A stretch of DNA of 57,171 nt from Planctomycetia bacterium. Lineage in GTDB: Bacteria; Planctomycetota; Planctomycetia; Pirellulales; PALSA-1355. The stretch is from assembly GCA_031400775.1 (NCBI GenBank), contig JANNQN010000437.1, positions 1 through 57,171 on the forward strand, written 5' to 3'. Positions within the stretch are counted from its first letter, which is position 1. Each line of letters opens with the position of its first letter. Positions 35,985-51,887 of this stretch are shown one piece after another. Both the position numbers and the translations under genes were made by a program. Below the pieces are notes generated by a model. That model had not been told where the DNA came from. It was given only the letters and a program-made list of their open reading frames with translations, and searched no databases.

Positions 35985-36339
35985 ACGGCTCCCGACCGAG
36001 CTACCGCCGGGGGGCATCTTGCGATCGCGCTTGGGCGACCTCAAATACGGGCAATTCCCTGCGATAACTCTCAGCCGGACAGGGACCTGTGCATTTATTT
36101 GGCACGGGGCGATCCATCTGGCGTGACCTTGCGTAAGTCTGGACAGGGACGCTATGTTCGTAGTAACTTCTAGGTCGCTTGATAGGGCGATTTGCCCCCC
36201 GTGGCGGACCAACGGCGGCTCGCACAGCCGCGCTTCGGCCGCGAAGCATTTTTGATTGACCGCACATGGGCATTCCCCCTGGAGTTTTTACCAGGGCGGT
36301 CGTTGCCATGGCGTCACTTCATTCAGGAGTCCTTTACCG

Positions 36340-37077
36340 ATGAGCGAACAGCCGGGTCCTGCCATGATCGAGGCCGTGGGGCTGTCCAAATACTACGGCG
36401 ATTTTGCCGCCGTCGAGGACGTCTCCTTCAGCATTCCGCAGGGACAGATCGTGGCTTTCCTCGGTCCCAACGGGGCCGGCAAGAGCACGACCATGAAGCT
36501 GCTGACCGGCTACCTGGCCCCGTCGCGGGGCATCGCCCGCATCGCCGGCCACGACATGGCCGCCGATCGCCTGGCCGGTTCCGCCCGACTGGGCTACTTG
36601 CCGGAAAACGGCCCGCTCTATCCGGACATGACGCCGCGGATGCTACTCAATTTCTTTGCCGACGCGCGGGGCCTGTCGGCGGCGCGCAAGCGGCAGCGGA
36701 TCGAGGACGTGGTCGAGTTGTGCGCGCTCAAGAGCGTGATCGGCAAAGCCATCGGCAAGCTGTCCAAGGGTTTTCGGCAGCGCGTCGGCATGGCGCAAGT
36801 GCTGCTGCACGAGCCCGACGTGCTGATTCTCGACGAGCCGACAGCCGGCCTGGATCCCAACCAGATTCGCGACGTGCGGGGCACGATCCGCAACCTGGGC
36901 AAGAACAAAACCATTTTGCTGTCGACGCACATTTTGCAGGAAGTCGAGGCGATAGCCGATCGCGTGCTGTTCATCAACGAAGGCCGCCTGGTCTACGACG
37001 GCACCGTGAAGGGATTCGCTTCCGGCGGGCACGATCTGGATACCCGCTTCCACGAGTTGACGACCGAGGGCGCCTAG
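36340..37077 (+). CDS. ABC transporter ATP-binding protein (GldA-like)
   Basis: The ORF is 36256..37077. The likely start is the ATG at 36340, after CAGGAG at 36324-29. Walker A GPNGAGKST, signature LSKGFRQRVGMA and Walker B LILDEPTAGLD are present. Confidence 0.9.
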   Translation: MSEQPGPAMIEAVGLSKYYGDFAAVEDVSFSIPQGQIVAFLGPNGAGKSTTMKLLTGYLAPSRGIARIAGHDMAADRLAGSARLGYLPENGPLYPDMTPRMLLNFFADARGLSAARKRQRIEDVVELCALKSVIGKAIGKLSKGFRQRVGMAQVLLHEPDVLILDEPTAGLDPNQIRDVRGTIRNLGKNKTILLSTHILQEVEAIADRVLFINEGRLVYDGTVKGFASGGHDLDTRFHELTTEGA

Positions 37078-37165
37078 AGACGACACGCGAACCCTCCTCC
37101 GATCCGCCAGCCAAACGACATACCAAGAGTTTACGAATTAATCGAACGCAACACAGGTTGAAGCC

Positions 37166-39973
37166 ATGAACGTCCACGTTATTCGTGCGATCTTCAAACG
37201 CAACTTCGTCAGTTATTTCAGCAACCCAACCGGTTACGTATTCATCTGCGTATTCGTGTTGCTCAGCTCCTTCGCGGCTTTCTGGCCCAACGACTTCTTC
37301 AACTCGAACCTGGCCAACTTGGATCAGTTGAACAAGTATCTCCCGTACATCCTGCTGGTGTTTATCCCGGCGATCACGATGAGCATTTGGGCCGACGAGC
37401 GGCGGCAAGGGACCGACGAGTTGTTGTTGACGATTCCGGCGGCCGATTTTGACGTCGTCTTCGGAAAATACCTGGCTGCCGTAGCGATTTACACGGTCTC
37501 GCTGTTGTTCTCGCTGGTCTCGAACTACATCGTGCTGTTGAACCTGGGCGATCCCGACCTGGGGCTGCTGCTGGGAACGTACTTCGGCTACTGGGTCGTG
37601 GGCCTGGCCATGATCGGCATCGGCATGGTCGCCTCGTTCCTGACCGGCAACTTGACCGTCGGGTTCATCCTGGGCGCGCTGTTCAATGCGCCCTTGGCAT
37701 TTGCCGGCGCCGTCTCCGACAAGCTCTCGTTTCTAAAAGGGCTGAGCATCACCGAACAGTTCCACGATTTCTCCCGCGGCGTGATCACCTTTTCCAGCGT
37801 GGGCTACTTTCTGGCCATCACGGCGCTCACGCTGTACTTGAGCGTGGTGCTCATCGGGCGGCGTCATTGGCGCGGCGGCGTCAACGGCAGCTCGATGGCC
37901 GGCCACTACGCCCTGCGCATTCTGGCGCTGATTGCCGTGGTGGTTTCGTTGAACTTCTTCTTGACGCGGCACGACCGTCTGCGGGCGGACGTAACCAGCG
38001 AGAACTTGAACTCGCTCGCGCCGCAATCGCGCGAGTTGATCGAGAATCTCGACACCAAGCGGCCGGTCGTGATCGAGTATTTCGTCAGCCCCAACGTGCC
38101 CGAAAGCTACGTGCAGACCCGGTTGAATCTGCTCAACACGCTTCGCGAGTTCCAGGCCATCGGTGGCGACAAAATCAAGCTCATCCGCCACGACGTGGAG
38201 CCGTTCAGCGAGGAAGCCCAGCGGGCGGAGCAGCAATTCGGGATCCGCCCCGTGCCCGTCGAGTGGCGAACCCGCGGAGCGCGGACGCGCGACGAGATCT
38301 TCATGGGTCTGGCCTTCACCTGCGGACTCGATAAGGTCGTGCTGCCGTTTGTCGATCGCGGCATTCCGGTGGAGTACGAGCTGGTGCGCTCGATCGCCAC
38401 GGTCAGTCAGCAGAAGCGTAAGAAGGTCGGCGTGCTGACGACCGACGCCAAGCTGTACGCGACGTTTGACATGCAGACCATGTCGCCCGGCCGCAACGAG
38501 CAGATTATCGAGGAGCTGCAAAAGCAGTACGACGTCGTGCAGGTCGATCCCACGAATCCGATCACGGAAAAATACGACGTGCTATTGGCCGTGCAGCCTT
38601 CGTCGCTGGCTCCGGAGCAGATGCAGCATTTCATCGACGCGGTGAAGAGCGGCCAGCCGACCGCGATTTTCGAAGATCCCTTTTCCATGATCAGCCCCGA
38701 CGTGCCGGGCACGATGGCGCCCAAGATGCCTCCCGGCGGCGGCAATCCGTTCATGCAACGACAGCCGCCGCAGCCCAAGGGCGATATCAGCCCGCTCTGG
38801 AAAATGCTGGGCGTGGACTTCAGCGGCGACAACGTGGTCTGGCAGGCGCACAACCCCTATCCCAAGCTGGGCGCGATCCCGCACGAATGGGTCTTCGTCG
38901 ACCACGACAGCGGCGCCCGCGAGCCGTTCAACGTCGACAATCCCGTCACCTCCAAGCTGCAACAAGTCTTGTTCCTGTTTCCCGGATCGATCTCTGGGCT
39001 GAACTCCTCGTCGCTGACCTTCACGCCGCTGGTCGTCACGGGAAACCGCACCGGGACGATTCGCTACGATCAGTTGATGCAGCGCAATTTCATGGGCCAG
39101 CCGCAGATGAACCCCGAGATTCCGCTGTTGGAAAAGCCGACCGGCGAACCTTACATCGTGGCGGCCCAAATTCGCGGCAAGCTCAGGTCCGAGAACCAGC
39201 CCATGTCCGACGAAGCGGCCGATGCGGCTGTGGCTCCGGCCGAGAAGAAAACGGCCGACGAGCCGGCCGACGCTTCTGCCGACGCGCAGAAAGCCGGAGA
39301 AGCAAAAGACGAAGCGAAAAAACCGGAAGCCGAGGCCGTCAAGACTGATCCGGAAATCAACGTCATCCTCGTCAGCGATATCGACTGCTTGTATGGAGCG
39401 TTCTTTGCCCTGCGAGCTCGTGGCGAAGACCCCGACGAAGAATTCAGCTTTCACTTCGACAACGTGCCCTTCGTGCTCAATGTGCTCGACGTGCTGGCCG
39501 ACGACAAGCGGTTCGTCGACATCCGCACGCGGCGTCCTTCGCACCGCACATTGACCAAGATCAACGAAGTCACCGAGAGCGCCCGCAAGGAAGCCGACCG
39601 CGCTCGCGAGAAGTACCTGAAGGATTTTGACACGGCGCGCTCGAAGGCCCAGAAGGATTTCGACGACCAGATGGCCGAGTTGGCCAAGCGGACGGGAGTC
39701 AACCGGCAGCAGGCTGCCATCGACAAGCTACAAGCGCAGATGCAAGGGCAGCAAAAGCTCGACGTGGCCCTGCAAGGCCTGAAGGACAAGCGCGACAAGT
39801 CGATGAAGGCGTCGCAGACCAACCTGGAACTTGCCGTCCGCAAGGTGCAGGATGATTACAAGCTGTGGGCCGTGCTGTTGCCGCCGATTCCGCCGCTGAT
39901 CGTGGCCTTTATCGTGTTCTTCAATCGCCGCGCCAGCGAACGAGAGGGAGTCAACAAGTCCCGGCTTCGTTAA
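37166..39973 (+). CDS. fused ABC-2 permease (GldF-like) / GldG-like auxiliary domain protein
   Basis: 935-aa ORF. The N-terminal ~240 aa carry about 6 hydrophobic helices. A large periplasmic GldG-type region follows, then an acidic/Lys-rich tract, a coiled-coil segment and a final TM helix (LWAVLLPPIPPLIVAFIVFF). Confidence 0.8.
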   Translation: MNVHVIRAIFKRNFVSYFSNPTGYVFICVFVLLSSFAAFWPNDFFNSNLANLDQLNKYLPYILLVFIPAITMSIWADERRQGTDELLLTIPAADFDVVFGKYLAAVAIYTVSLLFSLVSNYIVLLNLGDPDLGLLLGTYFGYWVVGLAMIGIGMVASFLTGNLTVGFILGALFNAPLAFAGAVSDKLSFLKGLSITEQFHDFSRGVITFSSVGYFLAITALTLYLSVVLIGRRHWRGGVNGSSMAGHYALRILALIAVVVSLNFFLTRHDRLRADVTSENLNSLAPQSRELIENLDTKRPVVIEYFVSPNVPESYVQTRLNLLNTLREFQAIGGDKIKLIRHDVEPFSEEAQRAEQQFGIRPVPVEWRTRGARTRDEIFMGLAFTCGLDKVVLPFVDRGIPVEYELVRSIATVSQQKRKKVGVLTTDAKLYATFDMQTMSPGRNEQIIEELQKQYDVVQVDPTNPITEKYDVLLAVQPSSLAPEQMQHFIDAVKSGQPTAIFEDPFSMISPDVPGTMAPKMPPGGGNPFMQRQPPQPKGDISPLWKMLGVDFSGDNVVWQAHNPYPKLGAIPHEWVFVDHDSGAREPFNVDNPVTSKLQQVLFLFPGSISGLNSSSLTFTPLVVTGNRTGTIRYDQLMQRNFMGQPQMNPEIPLLEKPTGEPYIVAAQIRGKLRSENQPMSDEAADAAVAPAEKKTADEPADASADAQKAGEAKDEAKKPEAEAVKTDPEINVILVSDIDCLYGAFFALRARGEDPDEEFSFHFDNVPFVLNVLDVLADDKRFVDIRTRRPSHRTLTKINEVTESARKEADRAREKYLKDFDTARSKAQKDFDDQMAELAKRTGVNRQQAAIDKLQAQMQGQQKLDVALQGLKDKRDKSMKASQTNLELAVRKVQDDYKLWAVLLPPIPPLIVAFIVFFNRRASEREGVNKSRLR

Positions 39974-40068
39974 TCCATAAATACTTAATCCGCCAGCGTG
40001 TCGAACGGCGTTTGGAATAAACACAAGCGCCCCGACGACCGACCCGTCCAGCTAGTGAGGAAGCTCGC

Positions 40069-41757
40069 ATGCAAGAGAATCACAAGACGCTCACGTTTGT
40101 CCTGGTGGCCGCGATGGCCGCTCTGGTGGCTTGGGAACCCTGGCGACCGGCGGTCTCGACCGACGCGCCGCCGGAGGAAGTGGGCACCAAACTCTTCCCC
40201 GATTTCAAAGATCCGCTGGCCGCCAAGAGCCTGGAAGTCGTGACTTTTAACGAAGTGGACGCGACGCTCCGCGATTTCAAGGTTGCGCAGGTCAACGGCG
40301 TGTGGGCGATTCCCTCGCACAGCGACTACCCGGCCGACGCCGCCGAGCACATGGCCCAGGCCGCCACGGCGCTACTGGATTTGGAAATCCTGGGCGTGGC
40401 CAGCAACAATGCGGGCGACCAGGAACTGTACGGCGTGATCACGCCCGACCTGGCCAAGCTGCGCCCCGGCATGGTGGGCGTCGGCACCCGCGTGATCGTC
40501 AAGGGAGACAAGGACAAGGGCCTGGCCGATCTGATCATCGGCAAGGAAGTGAAGGACGCCGGCCCGGCGGGTCTGCGCTATGTCCGTCGCGCCGAGCGCG
40601 ATCAGATCTATACGGTCAAAGTCAAAACCGACAAGTTCTCGACCAAGTTCGAAGACTGGATCGAGAAAGACCTGCTCAAGCTGAATGCCTTCGACATTCG
40701 CCAGGTCGAGCTCAACGACTATTCGACCGCCGACAACCTGACCGTGGACGGCGTGTCGCTGATGGTCAAGAAGCGCAGCCGCATCGACCTGGGATTCGAC
40801 GACGCGAAATCGAGCTGGAACTTGATCGAGATGACCGAATTCGACGACAAGGGAGAGCCGATCCCGGTCAAGCTTGGCGAAGACGAAGAGCTCAACAACG
40901 AGAAGCTCAACACGCTCAAGACTGCGCTGGATGACTTGAAGATCGTCGACGTGCAGCGCAAGCCCAAGGGGCTCAGCCAGGAATTGAAGGCCAGCGACGA
41001 GCTAGTCAAAGACAACGAAGCGGCCCTGTCGCTGGTGCAGCGGGGTTTCTTCCCGGTCGGCGAGAACCGCGAAATCTATTCCAGCGAAGGCGAAGCCACT
41101 TGCACGACCAAAGAGGGCGTGCGGTACATCCTGCGTTTCGGCCGTCTCGCTGGGGGCGAGGAACCCAAAGACGACAAGGAATCGCCGGATAAGGCCAAGA
41201 GCAACCCGGCCTTGAACCGCTACTTGTTCGTGATGGCCCAGTTCGATCCCAGCCAGATCGCCAAGCCGATCCTGGAACCGGTTCCTGGCGAAGCAGACGC
41301 CGCCGACAAGAAGCCGGCCGACGATGTTGCTAAGCCGGCCGAAACAAAGGCAAACGACGGGAAGAAGCCGGCTGACGGCGCGGTGCCCGAGGAAAAGACC
41401 GGCGCCCAGGACGAAGACGCCAAGGCCGCTCCCGCCGCCGATGCCAAGCCCGCCGAAAAGAAGGACGACAAGGCTGTCACGCCCGATGAGGAAAAGAAGA
41501 TTGCCATCCAGCGCGAGAACAAGCGCAAGCAAGATGAGTACGATGCCGCGGTGAAGAAGGGCCAGGATCGGGTCGCGGAGCTCAACGAGCGCTTCGCCGA
41601 TTGGTACTTCATCATCTCCGACGACGTCTACAAGAAGATCCACCTCGGCCGCGCCGACATCATCAAGAAGAAAGACGCCAAGGACGAAGCCGGCGCCGAC
41701 AAGAGCGGCGGTCTCGGCGAACTGAACGACCTGCCGCCGGGTCTCGAAGTCAAATAA
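40069..41757 (+). CDS. DUF4340-like protein (usual partner of GldG-type ABC systems)
   Basis: 562-aa ORF with a GAGGAAG upstream. It has an N-terminal anchor (LTFVLVAAMAALVAW) and its position immediately after the GldG-like gene is typical for this family. The C-terminal A/K/D/P-rich tract is low complexity. Confidence 0.65.
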   Translation: MQENHKTLTFVLVAAMAALVAWEPWRPAVSTDAPPEEVGTKLFPDFKDPLAAKSLEVVTFNEVDATLRDFKVAQVNGVWAIPSHSDYPADAAEHMAQAATALLDLEILGVASNNAGDQELYGVITPDLAKLRPGMVGVGTRVIVKGDKDKGLADLIIGKEVKDAGPAGLRYVRRAERDQIYTVKVKTDKFSTKFEDWIEKDLLKLNAFDIRQVELNDYSTADNLTVDGVSLMVKKRSRIDLGFDDAKSSWNLIEMTEFDDKGEPIPVKLGEDEELNNEKLNTLKTALDDLKIVDVQRKPKGLSQELKASDELVKDNEAALSLVQRGFFPVGENREIYSSEGEATCTTKEGVRYILRFGRLAGGEEPKDDKESPDKAKSNPALNRYLFVMAQFDPSQIAKPILEPVPGEADAADKKPADDVAKPAETKANDGKKPADGAVPEEKTGAQDEDAKAAPAADAKPAEKKDDKAVTPDEEKKIAIQRENKRKQDEYDAAVKKGQDRVAELNERFADWYFIISDDVYKKIHLGRADIIKKKDAKDEAGADKSGGLGELNDLPPGLEVK

Positions 41758-41837
41758 TTCAGTGCGCGTCTGCCCGTGTCATACGAAGGCAGCTAATCAC
41801 TTTGTGGTTCCCATATACGACTGCGAAATCCTACGCA

Positions 41838-42161
41838 TCACGCCGGAACTTCGACACCCAGCTCGCGCAGGAATTCGAGCGTGAAGATGCCCGTGTCGTG
41901 GCCGTCGGAAAACGAGATCGAATAGGCATAGTTGCCGACCGGCTTCATGCCCAGGATCGCCAGCGGTCGGGCTTCGGCCAGCGAGAGCACCGGCAGACCG
42001 GTCGACGGGGCTGGTGGCGCGGCCCGTTTCTCGCGACACGTCGCGCAAGGACAAGCCTTTCGCAGCGCCGATACGGTAATCTCGCGATTCTGGCCGTCGC
42101 TCCACTCGATGGTCAGCCGATTCTGGCCGCGCAGCTCGAGTTTCAGGGGTCGCAATTCCAT
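41838..42161 (-). CDS. DUF971 domain protein
   Basis: The ORF is 41838..42176 (GTG). The ATG at 42161 is preceded by AGGAG 5 nt upstream. MELRPLKLELRGQNRLTIEWSDGQNREITVSALRKACPCATC fits the DUF971 pattern, including the CPCA.C motif. Confidence 0.75.
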   Translation of the reverse strand: MELRPLKLELRGQNRLTIEWSDGQNREITVSALRKACPCATCREKRAAPPAPSTGLPVLSLAEARPLAILGMKPVGNYAYSISFSDGHDTGIFTLEFLRELGVEVPA

Positions 42162-42176
42162 CGCTTCTCCTGCCAC

Positions 42177-43436
42177 CTATTCCAGTTCGTTGAGCGCCGC
42201 CAACAACCGGTCCACTTCGTCGCTCGTGTTATAGTGCAGCAGACCCAGCCGCACGAGGCCCGCCGGCTCCAGTCCCAGCGACTCGCTCAGCTCGAGCGCA
42301 TAAAAGTTGCCGTGCCAGGCGAAGATGCCGCGCTCGGCGAGATGATCGGCCAGCTCCAGCGGCGCTAGCTTGCGATGCGTGATAGAAACGGTCGGCACGC
42401 GTTCGTCGAACCGCTCGCGATCGGTGATTCCCCACACGCGCACCCCGGCCAACCGCGCGAGCCCATCGATCAGCCGCCCGCATAGCTGCCGCTCATAGGC
42501 GGCAATCTCGGCAAACGCCGCCACGAGCGCCGCGCGCCGGTCGGGCGCTTGGGGCGCAAAGCGGCGGCCCAAGTCGGCCAGATACTCGATGGCTTCCAGC
42601 ACGCCGGCGATTCCTTCGTGGTTTTGTGTGCCGGTCATCCATTTGTCGGGCAGCGAGTCGCCCGCGGGTCGCACCTTGTAGGCGGCCAGCGACTCCATCA
42701 GCTCCGGCCGGCCCCACAGAATTCCCACGTGCGGGCCGAAAAACTTGTAAGCCGAGCAGGCCACGTAATCGCAATCCCAGTCGGCCGCGGAAACTAGCGC
42801 ATGCGGCGCGTAGTGTACCGCGTCAAGATAAACCTGCCCGCCCGCGTCGTGAACCCAACGGCAAATCTCGCGGACCGGGTTCACCGAGCCGACCGCGTTC
42901 GACGCGCAGCCGATGGCCGCCAGCCGCGTGCGGGGTGAAATCACCGCGCGCAACTCGCCGAGCTTGAGCGTGCAATCGCGGGGATCGAAATCGACATAGC
43001 GCACCGTGGCGCCTGCGTCGCGGGCAGCCAACACCCAAGGGGTGACATTGGCGTCGTGATCCAGCCGGGTGACGATCACCTCGTCGCCAGGGCGCCACGT
43101 GCGGGCCAGCGCCCGGCTGAAGGCCAGCGTGAGCGTGGTCATGTTGGCGCCGAAGACCGTGGCTTGCGGCGATGCGACACCCAGCAGATCGGCCGCGGCG
43201 ACGTGGGCCCGATCGAGCATAGCGTCACTCTCGCGGCTGGTGACAAACCGCCCGCCATGATTGGCGTTCGACTCGCTCAAGTACCGACTTATCGCCTGGA
43301 TCACGCGCTCGGGCGTCTGGCTGCCGGCCGGACCGTCGAGGTACACGGCAGGCTTGCCACCGACTTCTCGCGCCAGGGCCGGAAACTGTTGGCGACACCA
43401 CTCGACGGGAAATGTTTTCGCACTGGCGACTGCCAC
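42177..43436 (-). CDS. class V aminotransferase / cysteine desulfurase-like protein
   Basis: 419-aa ORF. It shows the fold-type I PLP layout with SAYKFFGPHVGILWG (PLP-lysine block) and LDHDAN, similar to the cysteine desulfurase-like family. Confidence 0.8.
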   Translation of the reverse strand: MAVASAKTFPVEWCRQQFPALAREVGGKPAVYLDGPAGSQTPERVIQAISRYLSESNANHGGRFVTSRESDAMLDRAHVAAADLLGVASPQATVFGANMTTLTLAFSRALARTWRPGDEVIVTRLDHDANVTPWVLAARDAGATVRYVDFDPRDCTLKLGELRAVISPRTRLAAIGCASNAVGSVNPVREICRWVHDAGGQVYLDAVHYAPHALVSAADWDCDYVACSAYKFFGPHVGILWGRPELMESLAAYKVRPAGDSLPDKWMTGTQNHEGIAGVLEAIEYLADLGRRFAPQAPDRRAALVAAFAEIAAYERQLCGRLIDGLARLAGVRVWGITDRERFDERVPTVSITHRKLAPLELADHLAERGIFAWHGNFYALELSESLGLEPAGLVRLGLLHYNTSDEVDRLLAALNELE

Positions 43437-43463
43437 CGATCGTCCTCCGCTGGGATTCGTTTG

Positions 43464-44294
43464 TTATTCGATCGTTTTCGCAATCTGTCGGTCCGTGTCG
43501 CGCCAATCGGTGACAAACATCGCGCCGGGGCTGTGTGTGATCGCCAGCTCGCAGCCCGCCTGGCAAAGTGCCACTTGCGGCGTCACTCCGCAAGCCCAAA
43601 ACATCGGCACTTCGCCCTGGCCAATCGTCACCGCCTCGCCGAAGTCTGGTCGCGACAAGTCATCGATCCCCAGGACTCGTGGATCGCCAATGTGCATGGG
43701 CGCACCGTGCATGGTCGGGTAGCGACCCGTGATTTCCGTAACGCGCTCGATGGCAGCCGGCGGATAAGGCCGCATGCTGACCACCAGGTTGCCGCGAAAG
43801 CGCCCCGCGGGCTGGCACTCGACGCTGGTGCGGTACATCGGCACGTTGCGGCCTTCCGTGATATGCCGCACCGCAAAGCCTTCGTCGATCAGTGCGTTTT
43901 CGAACGTGAATGAACAGCCCAAAAGAAAACTCACCAAATCATCGCGCCACAGGTGGCGAATGTCGGTCGGCTCGTCGGCGTCGGGCACGCCGTGCCGAAA
44001 GACGCGATACTTTGGCACGTCGCTGCGCAGGTCCGCGCCGGCCGCGCAGCCGCGCGGCTCCGGATCGCCCGGAGCGGTCTGTTCCAAGAGCGGACATGGT
44101 CGAGGATTGAGCCGGCAGAACTCGGAGAATTCGGCCGCGTCGGCCGCCAACAGAATCACCAGATTCGCCTGCACGAAGCCCCGGGCCAGTCCGGCCGTCG
44201 GTCCGGTCAGTTCGCCCGCGCGGATCGCGGCGCGCAGCTCGGCCCCTGTGGCACGAGACCACGTTTTGGCGGCTAGTGATTGGTCGGTTTGCAT
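43464..44294 (-). CDS. DUF1445 / UPF0317 putative hydro-lyase (D-glutamate cyclase-like)
   Basis: The ORF is 43464..44630, but only the part from the ATG at 44294 looks protein-like. RAAIRAGELTGPTAGLARGFVQANLVILLAADAAEFSEFCRLNPRPCPLL matches the UPF0317 signature region. Confidence 0.8.
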   Translation of the reverse strand: MQTDQSLAAKTWSRATGAELRAAIRAGELTGPTAGLARGFVQANLVILLAADAAEFSEFCRLNPRPCPLLEQTAPGDPEPRGCAAGADLRSDVPKYRVFRHGVPDADEPTDIRHLWRDDLVSFLLGCSFTFENALIDEGFAVRHITEGRNVPMYRTSVECQPAGRFRGNLVVSMRPYPPAAIERVTEITGRYPTMHGAPMHIGDPRVLGIDDLSRPDFGEAVTIGQGEVPMFWACGVTPQVALCQAGCELAITHSPGAMFVTDWRDTDRQIAKTIE

Positions 44295-45589
44295 CGTTCG
44301 TCGATAAACCGTTTGCCTTTGCCTTCCACGCGGGGCAAGCTCCCCAGCGGCGTGGTGAGGACTTCCACCTTCAGACCCAGCCGCAGTTGCAACTCCTGGG
44401 CTACCCTGTTGGGATCGTTCAGACGGTCCTCGATCTCGACCACGAGTTGATCCATCGCGCCGTTGGTGCGGGCCGTCATCCGATATTCGATCACTTCGGG
44501 AAAGCCGCGCAAGATCTGCTCGATCGAACTGGGAAACACATTTACGCCGCGGATGACCATCATGTCGTCGGCCCGGCTGAGCACGCCGCCCGGCAGGAAC
44601 ACGAAACGATTCGGCCCCACGCGCCGCCAACTCGGTCGCACCAGGTCGCCCGTGCGGTAGCGAATCACAGGGCTGCCGACGCGTCCCAAGTTCGTCAGCA
44701 CCAGCTCGGCCAGCTCGCCTTCGCCGGCCGCGGCGCCGGTTTCGAGCGACAAGAATTCGGCGATGAAATCGTTCTCGTTGATGTACAAGCCTTCGCCATT
44801 CGGATCGCCGTAGCCCCAGGGTCCGACCTCGGTGGCGCCGCTGTGGTCAATCACGCGGGCCTGCCAGGCATTCTCGATGCGGCTGCGAATCTCCGGCACC
44901 GACCCGCCGGCCTCGCCCGCTAGGATCAACTTCGTGACTTCCAGATCGCCGATCGTGATCTGGTTTTCGACAGCCACTTCGACCAGATGCAGGGCGTAGC
45001 TGGGCGTACAAAACACGGCGGTCGCCCGACTGCGGCGCAACAGCTCCAGCCGAGCCAACGTACTCAAGCCGCCGCCGGGCACGACCAGGCAGCCCCGCGC
45101 GCAGGCCGCGTCGAAAGCGCTCCAGAAGCCGACGAACGGTCCGAACGAAAACGCCATGAACACGCACTGGCCCGACGACACTTCAGCCGCGTCGAGCACG
45201 AATTGCCAGCAATCCATCCACCAGGCCCAATCGTCGGCCGTGTCGAGCACGACCAGCGGCCGGCCGCGCGTGCCCGAAGTCTGATGAAACCGCGTGTAGC
45301 GGTCCTGGGGAAACGTCAGATTGGCGGCCAGATCGCCCGGGTGCAGGGGGTTGAGCAACTCGTCCTTGAAGGTAAACGGCAGTTGCTTGAGCTCGTCGAG
45401 GGCCTGTAAGGGGCCGTCTGCCGAGCGCAGCGCGGCGGCGGGAATCTGCGAGAGCTTGTCGGCGTAAAAACGATTCTGGGGCAGGATCGCCTTGAGCAAC
45501 GTGTTCAGTCTGCCCAATTGATGCGCCGCCAATTGGGCGCTATCCAATGCCTCCAGCCGGCGTCGCTCGTCGAAAGTCGTGGTGATCAT
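44273..45589 (-). CDS. phenylacetate-CoA ligase family (PaaK / F390 synthetase-like) adenylate-forming enzyme
   Basis: 438-aa ORF. FHQTSGTRGRPLVV (AMP-binding P-loop), the ACT-like C-terminus (VVEIEDRL...LGLKVEV) and the overall length are typical of PaaK-like ligases. Confidence 0.8.
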   Translation of the reverse strand: MITTTFDERRRLEALDSAQLAAHQLGRLNTLLKAILPQNRFYADKLSQIPAAALRSADGPLQALDELKQLPFTFKDELLNPLHPGDLAANLTFPQDRYTRFHQTSGTRGRPLVVLDTADDWAWWMDCWQFVLDAAEVSSGQCVFMAFSFGPFVGFWSAFDAACARGCLVVPGGGLSTLARLELLRRSRATAVFCTPSYALHLVEVAVENQITIGDLEVTKLILAGEAGGSVPEIRSRIENAWQARVIDHSGATEVGPWGYGDPNGEGLYINENDFIAEFLSLETGAAAGEGELAELVLTNLGRVGSPVIRYRTGDLVRPSWRRVGPNRFVFLPGGVLSRADDMMVIRGVNVFPSSIEQILRGFPEVIEYRMTARTNGAMDQLVVEIEDRLNDPNRVAQELQLRLGLKVEVLTTPLGSLPRVEGKGKRFIDERCKPTNH

Positions 45590-45602
45590 GCATCAAATCA
45601 TA

Positions 45603-45631
45603 GCAGCCTGTTGATCTACTCAACAGGCTGC
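45603..45631. repeat. perfect 12-5-12 inverted repeat (stem-loop or operator candidate)
   Basis: gcagcctgttga (45603-14), spacer tctac, tcaacaggctgc (45620-31). It lies 14 nt upstream of the PaaK-like start codon. Confidence 0.7.
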
Positions 45632-45716
45632 CACATCGCATGGATGCGATGACAAAACAGCGACGCAAGTCGTTGCTTTGCAAGCCGTGCGGAGCTTAGC
45701 TTCGCACTTGGCGAGG

Positions 45717-45745
45717 TTGAAAAATGCCACGATGGCATTTTTCAA
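45717..45745. repeat. perfect AT-rich 12-5-12 inverted repeat (operator candidate)
   Basis: ttgaaaaatgcc (45717-28), spacer acgat, ggcatttttcaa (45734-45). It lies in the divergent intergenic region between the PaaK-like operon and the MFS gene. Confidence 0.7.
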
Positions 45746-45907
45746 CGGGTTGATAGAGTCCGCCGCACAAGCTGGCCAGCATGCACTCGGCAGCAGTTAT
45801 TCAACTGGCCCGGCGATCCCGTGGGTTGCTAGAATGCTGCGGACGCCGGGCCGTGCGCTTTCGCACTCGGCGTCTTCGACTCAATACGATGGGAAAAACA
45901 CCGCCCG

Positions 45908-47224
45908 ATGACCGACTCGCCTCGCAAAGCCTCGCTGCTGGTCATTTTCTTGACGGTGTTTATCGACCTGCTCGGTTTCGGCATGGTGTTGCCGCTGTTG
46001 CCGATCTACGCCAAGGACTTTGCCCTGCAATTGAATTTGAGCGAAGGGCACACGCAAGTCGGTCTGCTGATCGGCTTGCTCATGTCCAGCTTCTCGCTCA
46101 TGCAGTTCATCTTCGCCCCCTTGTGGGGTCGTATTTCTGATCGCGTCGGGCGCAGGCCGATTTTGATGGTGGGCCTGGCCGGTTCCACGGTGTTTTATTT
46201 CCTCTTCGGCATCGCCACGGTCTACCGCAGCTTGCCGCTCTTGTTCGTTTCGCGCATCGGAGCGGGCATTGCTGGCGCCACGATCTCCACGGCCCAGGCC
46301 TATATCGCCGATGCCACGAGTCTGCAAAACCGCGCCAAGGGCATGGCGCTGATCGGCGCGGCGTTCGGGCTGGGGTTCACGTTCGGACCGTTGTTCGGCT
46401 CGCTGGCGCTGGCCAACGAAGGTGGCAATCCGGGTCCGGGGCCCGGCTATGCCGCCGCCGCCCTCTCGGCCGCGGCGCTGCTCTTGGCTTATTTCAAGCT
46501 GCCGGAAAGTCTCAAGCCGGGCAACGAGGCCGCGGCCCGGCATTGGCTGGATTGGTCCGCGCTGGCCGCGGCCCTTTCCCGACCGGCCGTCGGCGTGCTG
46601 ATTCTGGCCACCTTCGTGTGCATCCTGTCGTTCGCGAATTTTGAGTCGACCTTGTCGCTGATGCTCAATAGCGAAGAAGTCGGCTATCGGTTTGAGCCGT
46701 GGCAAGTATCCCTGGTGTTTGCCTACATCGGACTGGTGCTGACCATCGTGCAAGGCGGAATCGTCCGCCGGATCTCGGGCCGAGTTTCGGAAAGCATCAT
46801 GGCGACCTCCGGCGCACTGGTCGAGATCGGCGGTTTTCTGCTGCTCGCCGCGGCCGTGACGCACAACTCACTGACGCTGCTGCTGGTCGCACTGGCAGTT
46901 GTGGTCAGCGGCTTTGCCTTCATCACGCCGTCGCTCAATTCGTTGCTATCTCGGTGGAGCGATCCTACGAAGCAGGGCGGAATTCTGGGAATCGGCCAGA
47001 GCATCTCGTCGCTCGCCCGGATTGTCGGCCCCATGATCGGAGTGCCGCTGAGTCAGAACGATTCTTTGGCTGCGCGAGTGGGCGCTACGGCCGCCGAGTT
47101 GCCGCTCTATCTGGCGGCGGGTCTGATGGGCGTTGGGCTGGTGCTGATCGTGGTCGCCAGCCGCCGAGGCCGCGACTATCCGGCGTCCGAACCCTCGGCC
47201 GTTGTGCCCGATCCGCTTTTGTGA
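45908..47224 (+). CDS. MFS transporter (drug:H+ antiporter/Tet-like)
   Basis: 438-aa ORF with about 12 hydrophobic segments. MFS motif A GRISDRVGRRPILMVG lies between TM2 and TM3. Confidence 0.88.
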   Translation: MTDSPRKASLLVIFLTVFIDLLGFGMVLPLLPIYAKDFALQLNLSEGHTQVGLLIGLLMSSFSLMQFIFAPLWGRISDRVGRRPILMVGLAGSTVFYFLFGIATVYRSLPLLFVSRIGAGIAGATISTAQAYIADATSLQNRAKGMALIGAAFGLGFTFGPLFGSLALANEGGNPGPGPGYAAAALSAAALLLAYFKLPESLKPGNEAAARHWLDWSALAAALSRPAVGVLILATFVCILSFANFESTLSLMLNSEEVGYRFEPWQVSLVFAYIGLVLTIVQGGIVRRISGRVSESIMATSGALVEIGGFLLLAAAVTHNSLTLLLVALAVVVSGFAFITPSLNSLLSRWSDPTKQGGILGIGQSISSLARIVGPMIGVPLSQNDSLAARVGATAAELPLYLAAGLMGVGLVLIVVASRRGRDYPASEPSAVVPDPLL

Positions 47225-50200
47225 GCCCGATCTGCGTTCGCCGCGCCGTATCCGCCACCGCCGGGCGTTTCGATCGTCAGGACATCGCCGGGCTGGACGC
47301 TGAACTGGGCCTTGCCGCCGAGTTGCTCAACCGGGCCGTCAACTCTCTCGAGCGAATTGCGCCCCAGCGCGCCGGGTTGGCCCCCCGCGAGTCCGTAGGG
47401 CGCTGCCGGCCCTCGGCGCTCGGTGAGCAGCGAAACCTCGAGCGGTTGGAGAAACTTCAGTCGACGCACCACGCCGTCGCCACCCCGCTGTTTGCCGTCG
47501 CCCCCCGAACCGCGGCGTATCGAAAACGATTGCACGCGGACCGGGTAGCGGCGCTCCATCACTTCGGGATCGGTGAGCCGGGTATTGGTCATATGCGTGT
47601 GGACGGCATCGGCCCCGTCGGCCTGCGGTGTGGCGCCGGCTCCGCCGCAAATCGTCTCGTAGTAGCCGAACGCGGCGTCGCCAAACAGCAGATTGTTCAT
47701 CGTTCCCTGGCTGGCGGCGGCCAGACCTAACGCTCCCAGCAAAACGTCGACGATGCGCTGCGAAGTTTCGACGTTGCCGCCCACCACGGCCGGCGACTCC
47801 TCGGCCCGAGGGCTGGCCGGCGGATTTAACAGTCCAGGAGGGATGATGATCTCGACCGGCGCGAGCACGCCCTGGTTGAGCGGAATGTCCTCGGCCAACA
47901 GGGCCCGCAAGACGTACATCACGGCGGCTGTGACGATCGCCGGGTTGGCGTTCAAGTTTCCGGCGCTCACGGGGCCGCTGCCGGTAAAATCGACCGTGGC
48001 CGAATCCCCCTGGATCGTAATCGTCACAACGATCGGCGTGCCGTCGTCCATTCGATCGGCGAACGGGTAGCTGCCGTCCGCGAGCTTGGCGAGCGCTCGG
48101 CGAACTTTGCGCTCGGCGGCGGACTGAATGTGTCGCATGAACGATTCGACCACTTCCAATGAATACCGCTCGACCAGCCGCAGCAAGTCGAGAGCGCCAC
48201 GCCGATTGGCGGCCACCTGCGCCGCAATGTCGGCCAGATTGGCTTCGACGTCGCGCGTTGGATAGGGCGGGGCGAGCAGCAGCGAGCGCAACTCGTCCCA
48301 GCGGGCCGTGCCGGCGTCGACCAGCTTGAAATTGCGAATCAGCACGCCCTCCTCGGCCAGGTTTCTCGAGAACGGTGGCATCGAGCCCGGGCGGATCCCG
48401 CCCAACTCCGCATGATGCGCCCGGCTGGCGGTGAAGAACAAAATCCTTCCGTTTTCACGGTGTACCGGAGTGACCACGGTCACGTCCGGCAAGTGCGAGC
48501 CGCCGCGGTAAGGGTCGTTCGTCGCAAACACGTCGCCCGGGCAAATCGCGGGATTGTCGCGGATGATGCGCCGCACGGTCTCGGCCATCGCGCCCAGATG
48601 GACGGGAATATGAGGTGCGTTGACCACCAGATCTCCCAGGGGAGTAAACAGCGCGCAACTGAAATCGAGCCGCTCCTTCACGTTCACGCTGCTCGAGGTG
48701 TTCCGCAGCGTGATGCCCATCTGCTCGGCGATGGCCGCGAATTGACTGTTGAAAATCTCCAATAGCACAGGGTCATCTTCGCTCGACACCTCGCTCGACA
48801 TGGCGCTCGCGCGTTGGGCGGCAGCCTCTGTCACCAGCAGCTCGCCGCCGCTCAAGACTTCCGCCTCCCAATCGGGATCGATCACGGCAGTCGATGCCTT
48901 CTCGCAGACGATCGCCGGGCCCGAGAAGCGATCGCCCGGCTGCAACTGGCCGCGCTCAAAGACGTTCGTCTCAAGCAATCGGCCACCGAAGTAGGTCGAG
49001 GTCTGCCGCGAAGCGGTTGGCGTCCGTGATGCAACTCGCTGCGAGGCGGCCAGCGGCGACGAACCCCCGCGGGCTTCGATCCGCGCGGCAACGATCTCCA
49101 ACTCGCGACCCTCGTGTATGTAGCCGTAACACTTGCGGTGCTCGTCGGCAAACACGTCGGCACACATGGCGGCCGTTTGTCCAACGGGGCAGGAAACCGT
49201 GAGTGACGCCTCGACGCCACGATAGCGAAGCTCCAGCCAGCGCGTGATCGCGATCTTTTCGCGGGCGATTCCTTCGGCCAGCACGCCTGCGAGCGCTTCG
49301 TCGGCCAGTCGCGCGAACAACGGTTCGAGCTCGGCAATGGTCGCCGACGACAATGGAAGGTAGACACCCGCCATGCGGTGACGCTCGACATCGGCCAGTC
49401 CGATGCCATAAGCGCTTAGCAAGCCGGCGTCCGGATGGTGAAGGATCTGCCGAATGCCCAGTTCGCGGGCCACGGCGCAGGCGTGCTGCCCGGCGGCGCC
49501 GCCAAACGGCACCAGCACGTATTCGCGCGGATCGCATCCCTTGGCCACCGAGATCGAGCCGATCGCCTTGGCCATGTTGGCATTCGCGATGCGTGCGAAT
49601 CCCTCGCTCAATTCCAGTGGCTCGTAGCGAGGGCCGCCGCCAGCGGCGATTTCTTCGATCACTTCGGCCAGCCGTGCCTCGGAGGCCGCGCGATCGAGCG
49701 GAAACGGAAAACGCTCGGGCTCGATTTTTCCCAAGAGCAAGTTGACGTCGGTGATCGCCAGGGGTCCGCCCCGACCGTAACAGGCCGGGCCCGGATTGGC
49801 GCCTGCGCTATCGGGGCCGACGACCAGCTTGACGCCGTCGAAGCGACAAATCGATCCGCCGCCGGCGGCGACCGTTTCGATGGCCAGCATCGGCGCGACG
49901 ACCCGCACGCCGGCCTTCTCGGTCTCGAATTCCAATTCGTAGCGGCCGTCGAACCGTGAAACGTCGGTGCTGGTTCCTCCCATGTCGAAGCCGATCGAAC
50001 GGGCGAATCCGGCCGCCGTGGCCACGCGCGAGAAACCGACCACGCCGCCGGCCGGACCCGAGAGAATGCTGTCCTTGCCCACGAACTGATCGGCCGCGAC
50101 CAGCCCTCCGGCCGAGGTGAGCAACCGCAGCGAACTGCCGGGCAACTCGTCGCCGAGCGTGCGCACGTAGCGGCGCAGGATCGGATTGAGATAGGCGTCC

Positions 50201-51045
50201 ATCACGGTCGTGTCGCCGCGCGAGACGATCTTGATCAATGGCGCAAGCCGGCTCGAAACGCTGATCTCCTCGAAGCCCAACTCGCGGGCGATCTGTTCGA
50301 CGACTTGCTCGTGATCGGGGCGGACGAAGGCATGCAGCAGGCAAATCGCCAGCGACTCGATTCCCTGCTCGCCGAGTTCGGTCAGTTGCCGGCGAACCTG
50401 GTCCGCGTCGGGCGCAAGCAGCACCTGACCGTCGGCGGCCACGCGTTCGTCGATTTCGACCACGGCGGCGAACAGCGGCGGGGGCTTGCGGATATCCAAG
50501 TCGAAGAGACGGGGGCGATTCTGATAGCCGATGCGTAACACTTCGGCGAAACCGCGAGTCGTAATGAAGGCCGTCTTGGCCCCGCGACGTGTAATCAAGG
50601 CGTTGGTGCCGCGGGTGGTTCCCAGGCGCACGCTCACGCGCGGAATCGGCGACGAAAGGGGCAGGCCCAAAAAATAGCGGATCGCCACGATCGGCGCCTC
50701 GATTCCCGCGGAGAGCTCGTAGCGGCTGCCGAGCGGGGGCTCTGCCGGCAAGGGCCGCGCCAGAGCGAGCGTCGAGGTGGACCGATCGAACGTCCGCACG
50801 GTGGATTCGTGAACGGCGACACCCCGATCGTTCAAGAGAACGAAGCGGTAGCCCGCCCAGATGTCGTCGGGATCGGCTGAGCGGGCCGTATCGACGACGC
50901 GGCCGGCGGACGATCCCGGGCCGACGGCGCCTTTGACGATGCCCGAGCTGAGCACCTTATAGTGCAGCAGGTGGCCATCCGGACGGCGAGCAAAGCTGTC
51001 GGTAAACGTTCCGCCGACGTCGATCCAGAATTCCCAGGAGGCCAT
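47176..51045 (-). CDS. fused hydantoinase/oxoprolinase (HyuA-HyuB; ATP-dependent 5-oxoprolinase-like)
   Basis: The ORF is 47176..51612. The protein-like part starts at the ATG at 51045 ([16 protein letters not shown], the HyuA N-terminal motif). The HyuB half begins near [20 protein letters not shown]. The product is 1289 aa. Its 3' end overlaps the convergent MFS gene by 49 nt. Confidence 0.88.
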
Positions 51046-51053
51046 GCGAGGAC

Positions 51054-51887
51054 CTAACCGAGCGGCCGTTGGGGTGGCCCTAGCTGCATGAAGGCCGGCT
51101 GCGGTTGATCGACCTTGACCTGCTCGAAGTTGTTCATGTTCTGCGGAACGCTCTTGTGGACGCAGATCATGTTGATCGAGACGGTATTCGGAAAAACGTT
51201 GTTCGCGTTGCCGAAAAAGTTGTTCGGACTGAAATAGTAGGGCAGGTGCCAGTACATGTTGTAGCCAATCGAATCGATGTGACGCACCAGTTCCTCGGCC
51301 TTTTCGCGTTTGTCGTTTTCGACGTATAAGACCGGCTTGAATCGCTCGATCGTGCGGGCCGCTCCGCGCAAGACGTCGGTCTCCATGCCCTCGACGTCGA
51401 CCTTGATGAAGCTGCAGCGCTGCAGGTTGAAGCTGTCGATGGTCACCACCGGCACATCCTCGCCGACGTCGAAGCTGCCCAGGGCTAGTCCGCCGAAATT
51501 GTTCTCGCGGCGATAGTCGAGCGCCGGCACTTTGATCGATCCGCTCTCGGCGCCGGCGGCCTGGTGCAGCGCGAAGACATTGGGAAGATTGTTCAGCGCC
51601 AGATTGGCGCAAAGCGTCTGATAGACGATTCGTTGCGGCTCAAGCGCCAGCACAATGCCGGCGTTTCCCACCTGTTGCGCCAAAAAGACAGTGTGCGCTC
51701 CAAAGTTGGCTCCGACTTCGACGACCACATTGCCCGGCTGCACTACCTGCCGAAACAGCTCGACTTCGCCTTCGGAGTACTCGCCGTACAGATCGAGCGA
51801 ACGGCCGATATACATGTCGTGGATGTTGTACAACATCTGCCCGTGACGGCACGCTTTCAGCCGATTGTAGTTTTCGAAAATGGCCAA
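51054..51887 (-). CDS. FkbM family methyltransferase
   Basis: 277-aa ORF. VVVEVGANFGAHTVFLA (SAM-binding Gly-rich loop) and FIKVDVEGMETDVLRGA are FkbM hallmarks. Its stop lies 8 nt before the oxoprolinase start. Confidence 0.85.
   Translation of the reverse strand: MAIFENYNRLKACRHGQMLYNIHDMYIGRSLDLYGEYSEGEVELFRQVVQPGNVVVEVGANFGAHTVFLAQQVGNAGIVLALEPQRIVYQTLCANLALNNLPNVFALHQAAGAESGSIKVPALDYRRENNFGGLALGSFDVGEDVPVVTIDSFNLQRCSFIKVDVEGMETDVLRGAARTIERFKPVLYVENDKREKAEELVRHIDSIGYNMYWHLPYYFSPNNFFGNANNVFPNTVSINMICVHKSVPQNMNNFEQVKVDQPQPAFMQLGPPQRPLG

Follow-up and report, generated by a model that had tools for sequence, protein, structure and literature searches.

Gene arrangement at the locus

The window considered here is the whole stretch of DNA analysed, 57,171 nt from a single contig of a bacterium of the order Pirellulales (Planctomycetota). 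A coordinate and open reading frame (ORF) check established that it carries a string of four minus-strand genes (positions 45589-41838) in the order ligase, DUF1445, PLP enzyme and DUF971. The first gene of the string (45589..44273) encodes a PaaK-like ligase of 438 amino acids and ends with a TAG stop codon at 44275-44273. It is followed on the same strand by the DUF1445 gene (44294..43464, 276 amino acids), which extends from an ATG at 44294 to a TAA at 43466-43464, and by the gene for the PLP enzyme (43436..42177, 419 amino acids), which has a GTG start codon at 43436 and a TAG at 42179-42177. The last gene, DUF971 (42161..41838, 107 amino acids), begins with an ATG at 42161 and has its stop codon at 41840-41838.

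The spacings at successive junctions of the string are -22, 27 and 15 nt, with Shine-Dalgarno-like sites. Because the DUF1445 ATG lies at 44294 and the ligase stop codon at 44275-44273, these two ORFs overlap by 22 nt. The 27 nt gap between the DUF1445 and PLP genes contains GGAGGA, and the 15 nt gap between the PLP and DUF971 genes (GTGGCAGGAGAAGCG) contains AGGAG. An earlier note on this DNA had described four packed co-directional genes with this overlap and these gaps, and all of its coordinates were confirmed. In genus-level relatives, the DUF1445 alignment begins at residue 1 and the overlap with the ligase gene is identical, which supports the overlapping start.

A consensus scan revealed no promoter-like or terminator-like sites within the string. 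Among the contigs of one metatranscriptome, the only one with related sequence, no transcript bridges any junction of the string; these contigs are short and mostly derive from relatives (90-95% alike). From the spacing of the genes and the lack of predicted internal signals, we infer that the four genes are probably co-transcribed as one unit, and because neighbouring genes overlap or are separated by very short gaps, their translation may be coupled.

Divergent from the ligase gene is a gene for a Tet(A)/DHA1 efflux-type MFS transporter (45908..47224, plus strand, 438 amino acids; MFS_1, 168 bits), which among NCBIfam models scores highest against the Tet(A)/(B)/(C) efflux family (177 bits, under the cut-off of 475). 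The same divergent arrangement is present in family f1 and in the relatives G032, G039, G040, G017 and L048-L050. The divergent control region carries a palindrome-rich dispersed repeat of ~155 bp (45601..45757) located 12 nt upstream of the ligase ATG. When positions 45595-45760 were used as a query, 10 near-full copies (90-94% identity) plus partial ones were found on other contigs of the genome, and the summed contig depth of the repeat in metagenome run X3 was 1119, compared with ~15 nearby.

The annotated flanks (34983-51612) comprise the MFS gene, a gene for a HyuA/HyuB lactamase, a DUF4340 gene, an ABC-2/GldG fusion and two ORFs that have no Pfam match; this set includes no paa catabolic genes and no genes for SufE, SufU or SufBCD. 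The ABC/DUF4340 block is convergent with the string and presumably unrelated to it, and stays beside DUF971 in many string-bearing genomes. Because this block is likewise retained, conserved order in the Pirellulales is no proof of shared function.

The ligase, PLP enzyme and DUF971 protein

Pfam and NCBIfam scores agree with all four family calls of the earlier note (PaaK-like, DUF1445, class V PLP desulfurase-like and DUF971). The ligase is composed of AMP-binding and AMP-binding_C_2 domains (Pfam), and resembles PaaK and PaaK-like ANL enzymes (4r1l, 2y27) in its two-domain fold family. Its ANL motifs, namely the P-loop TSGTRGRP (104), the hinge YRTGD (311) and the C-terminal catalytic Lys motif EGKGKR (422), align with those of the two PaaK structures. 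With every adenylation motif intact, the protein would be expected to activate a carboxylate. Its identity as a true PaaK was rejected, because the scores against the PaaK equivalog models TIGR02155 (182.8 bits, cut-off 646.3) and NF041878 (198.4 bits, cut-off 700) fall far below the cut-offs. Unlike PaaK, the ligase belongs to a separate orthologue group that is universal among the Pirellulales sampled (41 of 41 relatives), with 51-80% identity among orthologues. The nearest paralogues (41-48% identity) reside in a different cluster together with a MacB-type ABC system, a GT4, a halogenase-like flavoprotein and a radical SAM enzyme.

The PLP enzyme matches TIGR01976 ('cysteine desulfurase-like', VC1184 family) over its full length with 482.7 bits (cut-off 352.35), and Aminotran_5 (Pfam) over residues 31-411. 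Its best match in the PDB is Fgm3 (9x4u), which has been described as a PLP retro-aldolase, at 179 bits, a score far below that for TIGR01976; UstD (7mkv) is also matched. Homology to SufS/CsdA extends over the whole length (~167 bits), and K231 (SAYKFFGPH) aligns with the lysine of SufS SSHKMCGP, which we take to be the PLP lysine, and with that of Fgm3. In contrast, where SufS/CsdA carry the catalytic, persulfide-bearing loop Cys (GHHCA in SufS), the present enzyme has Tyr379 (HGNFY379A), and neither K231 nor Y379 varies among 15 orthologues. Given this invariant Tyr and the fact that the closest solved relative is Fgm3, we rejected the enzyme as a self-sufficient desulfurase, which weakens the earlier suggestion that the PLP step might be sulfur-mobilising. 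A separate homologue with ~32% identity is encoded on another contig of the genome.

Like Fgm3 and UstD, the PLP enzyme has a class V fold that lacks the catalytic Cys. However, those two proteins are fungal natural-product enzymes, whereas the present protein falls in the uncharacterised TIGR01976 (VC1184) family. By analogy with the retro-aldol reaction of Fgm3 and the decarboxylative aldol reaction of UstD, the enzyme would most likely act by way of an alanine-enamine intermediate to break or make a bond at the C-beta of an alpha-amino acid.

The DUF971 protein matches PF06155 (DUF971/GBBH-like_N) with 79.6 bits (cut-off 22.8). As in stand-alone bacterial DUF971 proteins and the N-terminal domain of gamma-butyrobetaine hydroxylase, it carries a CxCxxC...H pattern (C37-P-C39-A-T-C42 ... 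H88), and a comparison of 15 orthologues, from genes both linked and unlinked to the ligase gene, showed no variation at these three Cys and the His. The CPCATC motif that had been singled out previously is therefore present, but it is the conserved Cys3-His signature of the family rather than anything special to this copy. The three Cys and the His match the structural zinc site of the gamma-butyrobetaine hydroxylase family. DUF971 is single-copy in six of six genomes checked (the present genome and five relatives), and transposon-fitness data tie the family to general Fe-S maintenance.

The Cys-less PLP enzyme could form no persulfide of its own, and one may ask whether the Cys residues of DUF971 serve as an in-trans persulfide acceptor for it, such that the activated carboxylate is converted to a thiocarboxylate and the product exported by the MFS transporter. 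The three invariant Cys residues of DUF971, the efflux type of the transporter, the closeness of the PLP enzyme in sequence to SufS-type desulfurases (Fgm3 apart) and the retained adjacency of the PLP and DUF971 genes (family f1, G028, G039 and G025) fit such a sulfur transfer. Nevertheless, we consider it very improbable. The Cys3-His set matches the zinc site noted above, so that no free thiol would be left, and Fgm3 and UstD, the Cys-less relatives that have been characterised, carry out carbon-carbon rather than sulfur chemistry. Moreover, PLP orthologues elsewhere in the Planctomycetota have no DUF971 or ligase neighbour, and in seven genomes the ligase-DUF971 pair occurs without the PLP gene.

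DUF1445 and its association with lactam enzymes

The DUF1445 protein is a member of UPF0317 ('putative hydro-lyase', D-glutamate-cyclase family), and exceeds the curated cut-offs of PF07286 (218 bits, cut-off 25) and, over residues 11-269, of NF003969 (379.8 bits, cut-off 324). Its relatives in the PDB are 3db9 and 2pif, neither of which has an assigned function, and no bacterial DUF1445 protein with an enzyme assay was found in the literature searched. The family is common to mammalian DGLUCY and to B. subtilis YcsI, the latter presumably encoded in the pxp operon. The ycsFGI-kipIAR (pxpABC) operon of B. subtilis has been described (PMC10448178).

The earlier note regarded DUF1445 as the catalytic domain of mammalian D-glutamate cyclase. 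The domain is present in the mouse enzyme, but the statement is overstated, as DUF4392 is there as well and the paper that identified the enzyme assigns no catalysis to DUF1445 (PMC5339696). Whereas the mammalian enzyme carries DUF4392, this domain (PF14336) is neither fused nor adjacent to the present DUF1445. The PF14336 gene of this genome is located on another contig (C389), amid cytochrome b, ABC-2, GGDEF and pyrB/pyrC-like genes.

We also considered the neighbours of DUF1445 at 80 loci across phyla. These include PF14336 (33 loci), PxpABC (16), a HyuA/HyuB lactamase within 5 kb (8) and class IV (D-amino-acid) aminotransferases with Aminotran_4 (6). Linkage to an oxoprolinase was found at 24 of the 80 loci, and seven loci of other lineages have a member of the fused HyuA/HyuB lactamase family no more than 5 kb from DUF1445. 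The present locus echoes this linkage, in that a gene for a fused HyuA/HyuB ATP-dependent lactamase of the oxoprolinase/hydantoinase family (47176..51045, minus strand, ~1289 amino acids; Hydant_A_N, Hydantoinase_A, Hydant_A_C and Hydantoinase_B) resides 3 kb from DUF1445 and keeps its synteny in family f1 and L050. Among solved structures, the nearest relative is the fused N-methylhydantoinase 7hk5 (455 bits) rather than a proven 5-oxoprolinase. The lactamase is likely to be a functional neighbour of DUF1445. In G017, a genome where DUF1445 was not found, the lactamase gene is kept beside MFS-ligase-DUF971, and its proximity at the present locus may be inherited synteny.

By analogy with D-glutamate-cyclase-type hydro-lyases, the DUF1445 protein would most likely interconvert D-glutamate, or a close analogue, and a five-membered lactam, and the lactamase encoded nearby would use the same lactam pool.

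Distribution and gene order in the Pirellulales

Among 41 Pirellulales relatives, orthologues of the PLP enzyme and DUF1445 are found in ~31 and 28, respectively, and every one of the 13 relatives for which DUF1445 was not found has the ligase, as do those that have no PLP orthologue. The order ligase-DUF1445-PLP is maintained in 21 of the 28 DUF1445-bearing relatives. Other relatives have ligase-DUF971 (seven genomes), ligase-PLP-DUF971 (G028), ligase-DUF1445-DUF971 (L049, G016), DUF1445-PLP-DUF971 (G039), PLP-DUF971 (G025), a DUF1445-PLP pair or fully scattered genes, and every partial arrangement has the same gene order. A quick tree places the 15 Pirellulales copies of DUF1445 in a single clade (SH-aLRT 99), in which linked and unlinked copies are intermixed.

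This linkage is confined to the Pirellulales, and the gene set is not co-localised in any of the independent lineages examined. At 76 DUF1445 loci outside this order, the gene is never flanked by a ligase gene and a PLP gene as it is here, and none of the three partners (ligase, PLP enzyme and DUF971) is encoded within 8 kb. No string partners were found near the PLP orthologues of eight other Planctomycetota or near the 13 closest ligase homologues in other Planctomycetota, and no ligase homologue lies beside DUF971 in those non-Pirellulales Planctomycetota where both genes were located. What sets the Pirellulales copies apart from other DUF971 genes is their position behind the PaaK-like ligase, either directly or after inserted genes, which was seen only in this order. 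A check for co-conservation of the quartet in other genomes, as the earlier note had proposed, accordingly turned up no case at the 76 loci or in the other Planctomycetota examined.

These patterns bear on the single compact pathway proposed previously, in which carboxylate activation is followed by the closing or opening of a glutamate-like lactam and then by a PLP step on the same intermediate. Tight packing, the overlap between the ligase and DUF1445 genes conserved in genus-level relatives, the maintained gene order and the fact that collinearity is never broken are all consistent with such a hand-over among the proteins. So is G032, which keeps the ligase-DUF1445-PLP trio and the divergent MFS gene despite otherwise different flanks. 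However, the ligase, DUF1445 and PLP genes differ in their distributions, the ligase persists where either of the others is missing, and DUF1445 and the PLP gene occur alone or paired elsewhere (G025, G037, G033 and G039). Since this linkage did not turn up beyond the Pirellulales, and the partners of DUF1445 across phyla are different and consistent, we judge a dedicated linear pathway to be unlikely.

At the other extreme, unrelated genes might have been juxtaposed in a Pirellulales ancestor and be co-transcribed for convenience only. The restriction of all linkage to this order, the independent loss and relocation of genes, the similar degree of conservation of the unrelated ABC/DUF4340 block, and the sole DUF971 copy, whose family fitness data point to a general role, would be expected if the order were simply inherited. 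This explanation is also improbable, since adjacency at the divergence seen among the ligase orthologues usually needs selection, at least six other families of Pirellulales retain the ligase-DUF971 pair, and translational coupling is suggested by the junctions.

A probable modular gene string

Because the grouping is found only in the Pirellulales and its genes have been lost or moved independently, the string looks like a modular operon and not one fixed pathway. We favour, with a probability of roughly one-half, a Pirellulales-specific, probably co-transcribed, modular gene string rather than an obligate four-step pathway, and the operon is best read as ancestral. Its scaffold would consist of the efflux-type MFS gene divergent from the ligase gene, followed in many genomes by the sole DUF971 gene. 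Between the ligase and DUF971, the DUF1445 and PLP genes would represent two dispensable cassettes that encode amino-acid or lactam enzymes.

Organization of the four genes

All four open reading frames, on the minus strand between 45589 and 41838, lie where the earlier note placed them, which confirms both the feature and its description there. The PaaK-like ligase gene (45589..44273) ends with a TAG at 44275-44273, and the DUF1445 gene (ATG at 44294, stop at 43466-43464) overlaps this end by 22 nt. The PLP enzyme gene starts with a GTG at 43436, separated from the DUF1445 stop by 27 nt containing GGAGGA, and terminates at 42179-42177; a further 15 nt with AGGAG precede the DUF971 ATG at 42161. 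The overlapping DUF1445 start is credible because the proteins of genus-level relatives align from residue 1, with the identical overlap of the ligase gene. A consensus scan detected no promoter-like or terminator-like sites inside the string, and Rfam gave no match across 41500-47300 at E <= 0.1. The four genes are probably transcribed as a single unit. In the metatranscriptome X20, 8% of sampled words were present, and its contigs (78-407 nt, mostly 90-95% alike and stemming largely from relatives) bridged none of the gene junctions.

The string is flanked on one side by a divergent gene for a Tet(A)/DHA1-like MFS transporter (45908-47224, plus strand) and on the other by a convergent DUF4340/ABC-GldG block. 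The 3′ end of the MFS gene overlaps that of a converging minus-strand gene for a fused HyuA/HyuB lactamase by 49 nt (47176-47224). Just upstream of the ligase ATG, positions 45601-45757 are occupied by a palindrome-rich dispersed repeat of ~155 bp, which has 10 near-full copies (90-94% identity) as well as partial copies on other contigs of the genome, and a summed contig depth of ~1119 versus ~15 nearby in a metagenome run. These features resemble a MITE/REP-type element, and a reading of the palindromes as an operator array was rejected in view of the dispersed copies.

Distribution and gene order

According to the source annotations of the best DUF1445 matches, the window belongs to Pirellulales. 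Among 41 Pirellulales relatives from the same genus, family or order, a ligase orthologue is present in every genome (51-92% identity), a PLP enzyme orthologue in about 31 (at least 58% identity where intact) and DUF1445 in 28. The genes for ligase, DUF1445 and PLP enzyme follow one another in this order in 21 of the 28 DUF1445-bearing genomes, and contig ends cut the string in two more. The others comprise G016, with ligase-DUF1445-DUF971; G033 and G039, where DUF1445 is paired with the PLP enzyme and the ligase lies elsewhere; and two genomes where DUF1445 stands alone, namely G025, with a PLP-DUF971 pair and the ligase on another contig, and G037, with all four genes apart. Where DUF1445 was not found, the ligase is directly followed by DUF971 (G013, G017, G027, G031, G034, G038 and G040) or by the PLP enzyme and DUF971 (G028), or is apart from DUF971 (G026 and G035, the PLP gene also being apart in G026). 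No permutation of the order ligase, DUF1445, PLP enzyme, DUF971 was seen. In a quick maximum-likelihood tree, 15 Pirellulales DUF1445 proteins form one clade (SH-aLRT 99), with linked copies scattered among unlinked ones. The most parsimonious history starts from an ancestral string of all four genes, followed by internal deletions and relocations.

Two further observations concern individual relatives. DUF971 is missing behind ligase-DUF1445-PLP in G032 (locus L038:2265-7840), and the string continues co-directionally with genes for a TPP-dependent enzyme, an SBF-family transporter, an NAD-dependent epimerase/dehydratase and a short-chain dehydrogenase. In G003, G001, G016, G006, G012 and G024 (loci L042-L046 and L034), whose assemblies have very few contigs, the genes appear as several shifted tblastn pieces or carry in-frame stops, for which assembly errors are more likely than gene decay.

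Beyond the order, we scanned species-representative genomes of many phyla with DUF1445 as the anchor and flanks of up to 8 kb, which yielded 80 loci (L047-L126). The ligase occurs in just three of these, all from Pirellulales, and in the 76 loci from other lineages neither the ligase nor the PLP enzyme nor DUF971 is present. Ligase-DUF971 adjacency was never seen in non-Pirellulales genomes in which both were located, and PLP enzyme orthologues of eight other Planctomycetota (40-58% identity) have neither string partners nor a common neighbour. The earlier note, which regarded the four genes as one compact pathway, had named lack of co-conservation in other genomes as grounds for refutation. 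Co-conservation of the quartet beyond Pirellulales was not found, and by that yardstick the single-pathway inference is weakened; we now consider a strict single pathway unlikely, even with the fixed order of the genes in Pirellulales.

That order is not by itself proof of shared function, because many of these genomes also keep the convergent ABC/DUF4340 block next to DUF971. Neutral synteny among genes that share no function would account for such retention, and the string would then be an ordinary lineage-specific operon of co-transcribed neighbours. We regard this explanation too as doubtful, and favour a modular operon over one fixed pathway, with a probability of about 0.5.

The PaaK-like ligase

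Both AMP-binding domains are present in the ligase, and its P-loop (TSGTRGRP), YRTGD and C-terminal EGKGKR motifs align with the PaaK structures 4r1l and 2y27. From these sequence features it looks competent for adenylation, yet it is no true PaaK: that identity was ruled out by PaaK equivalog scores of 183-198 bits, far short of the 646-700 required, and by the lack of paa context nearby. The enzyme would activate some carboxylate. As it is universal in the order, its role should be independent of DUF1445 and the PLP enzyme.

In other Planctomycetota, no string partner lies within ~8 kb of the 13 closest ligase homologues examined (39-46% identity by tblastn). A different conserved cluster surrounds at least six of these homologues (L137:2044-15971, with matching parts in L138, L140, L145, L147 and L149); it encodes a MacB-type ABC permease and ATPase, a GT4 protein, a Trp-halogenase-like flavoprotein, a HemN-like radical SAM enzyme, PQQ-type beta-propellers and a 4HBT thioesterase. 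Two representative ligase relatives (identity 42-44%) are fusion proteins, P0146 with an ABC-transporter ATPase domain and P0147 with an L-2-amino-thiazoline-4-carboxylate hydrolase (ATC-hydrolase) domain.

The PLP enzyme and DUF971

The PLP enzyme belongs to TIGR01976 over its full length, scoring 483 bits where the cut-off is 352. In a HMMER alignment to SufS, K231 is conserved and the GHHCA loop is replaced by HGNFY379A; both residues, K231 and Y379, are unchanged across 15 orthologues with identities as low as 40%. A self-sufficient cysteine desulfurase is thereby ruled out, as the catalytic Cys is missing. The best PDB match is Fgm3 (9x4u), to which a preprint ascribes a PLP-dependent retro-aldol reaction on the compound it numbers 1 (bioRxiv 10.1101/2023.03.21.533663), and UstD, a Cys-less 'desulfurase-like' enzyme, is also among the PDB matches. 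An equivalence between Fgm3 Tyr225, the proposed general base, and Tyr230 of the PLP enzyme was dropped because the PDB and UniProt numberings could not be reconciled. The PLP enzyme would most likely perform lyase or aldol chemistry at C-beta with alanine as product, not the sulphur mobilization that the earlier note had thought possible. With a Tyr invariably at the position of the desulfurase Cys, TIGR01976 members are better candidates for screens of C-beta lyase or aldolase activity than of sulphur mobilization.

DUF971 matches PF06155 and is present once in this genome and once in each of the five relatives checked. The CPCATC motif noted earlier is indeed present; it is not special to this copy, since C37-P-C39-A-T-C42, together with H88, is invariant in 15 orthologues, and is the signature of the DUF971 family. 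Transposon-fitness data tie this family to Fe-S maintenance (bioRxiv 10.1101/072470). Its repeated position behind the ligase may reflect partnership or mere inheritance.

The Cys-less PLP enzyme and the invariant cysteines of DUF971 could be combined in a split desulfurase and thiocarboxylate synthase. Sulphur from cysteine would pass in trans from the PLP enzyme to a DUF971 thiol, the carboxylate activated by the ligase would become a thioacid, and the MFS transporter would export the product; DUF971 would be a dedicated partner of the ligase and, where present, of the SufS-like enzyme. If true, this would be the first biochemical role for DUF971. We consider it very improbable. A two-component enzyme formed by ligase and DUF971 is likelier, although itself still unlikely. 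Because the only DUF971 gene repeatedly stands behind a universal ligase in Pirellulales, the pairing could give DUF971 a biochemical handle.

DUF1445, the lactamase and a probable role in D-glutamate handling

The DUF1445 protein scores above the cut-offs of PF07286 and NF003969 ('putative hydro-lyase'). Structures exist for two relatives, Atu3911 and PSPTO_5379, neither with an assigned function, and the literature searched yielded nothing on the function of bacterial DUF1445/UPF0317. The link to the mammalian D-glutamate cyclase family drawn earlier stands; the claim that DUF1445 is its catalytic domain is too strong, as the mouse D-glutamate cyclase paper does not establish which domain carries out catalysis (PMC5339696).

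We clustered the neighbours in the 80 DUF1445 loci and named the clusters by Pfam. DUF4392 (PF14336), the other domain of the mammalian cyclase, is encoded within 5 kb of DUF1445 in 33 loci; the two domains are fused in the mammalian protein and are neighbouring genes in these bacterial loci. PxpB, PxpC and PxpA of the prokaryotic 5-oxoprolinase are among the neighbours of DUF1445 in 16, 16 and 15 loci, and a HyuA/HyuB lactamase lies within 5 kb in eight, so that an oxoprolinase of either kind is near DUF1445 in 24 of the 80. LIV-type ABC transporter parts (11-15 loci) and a class IV, D-amino-acid-type aminotransferase (6 loci) also recur. The recurrence of 5-oxoprolinases, DUF4392 and D-amino-acid aminotransferases beside DUF1445 in different phyla points to D-glutamate/pyroglutamate handling. 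The DUF4392 gene of this genome lies on another contig among unrelated genes.

Given the cross-phylum oxoprolinase neighbours, the lactamase 3 kb away (47176-51045, minus strand) is the likeliest candidate for a functional partner of DUF1445 in this genome, although it stays in place in G017, where DUF1445 was not found. This fused HyuA/HyuB protein is of the ATP-dependent type. Its closest solved structure is a fused N-methylhydantoinase (7hk5, 455 bits), so 'oxoprolinase' is a family-level label; NCBIfam gives no more than weak matches, to caprolactamase and acetophenone carboxylase. We infer that DUF1445 most likely converts D-glutamate, or a closely similar compound, to its lactam and back, and that the lactamase would draw on this lactam pool as well.

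The string joins known families in a combination not described before; it is restricted to one order, is modular in composition, and does not define a new pathway. It brings together four large families without an assigned bacterial reaction: UPF0317/DUF1445, TIGR01976, DUF971 and an orphan PaaK-like clade. It is no ready-made pathway map, but it offers testable leads on three orphan families.
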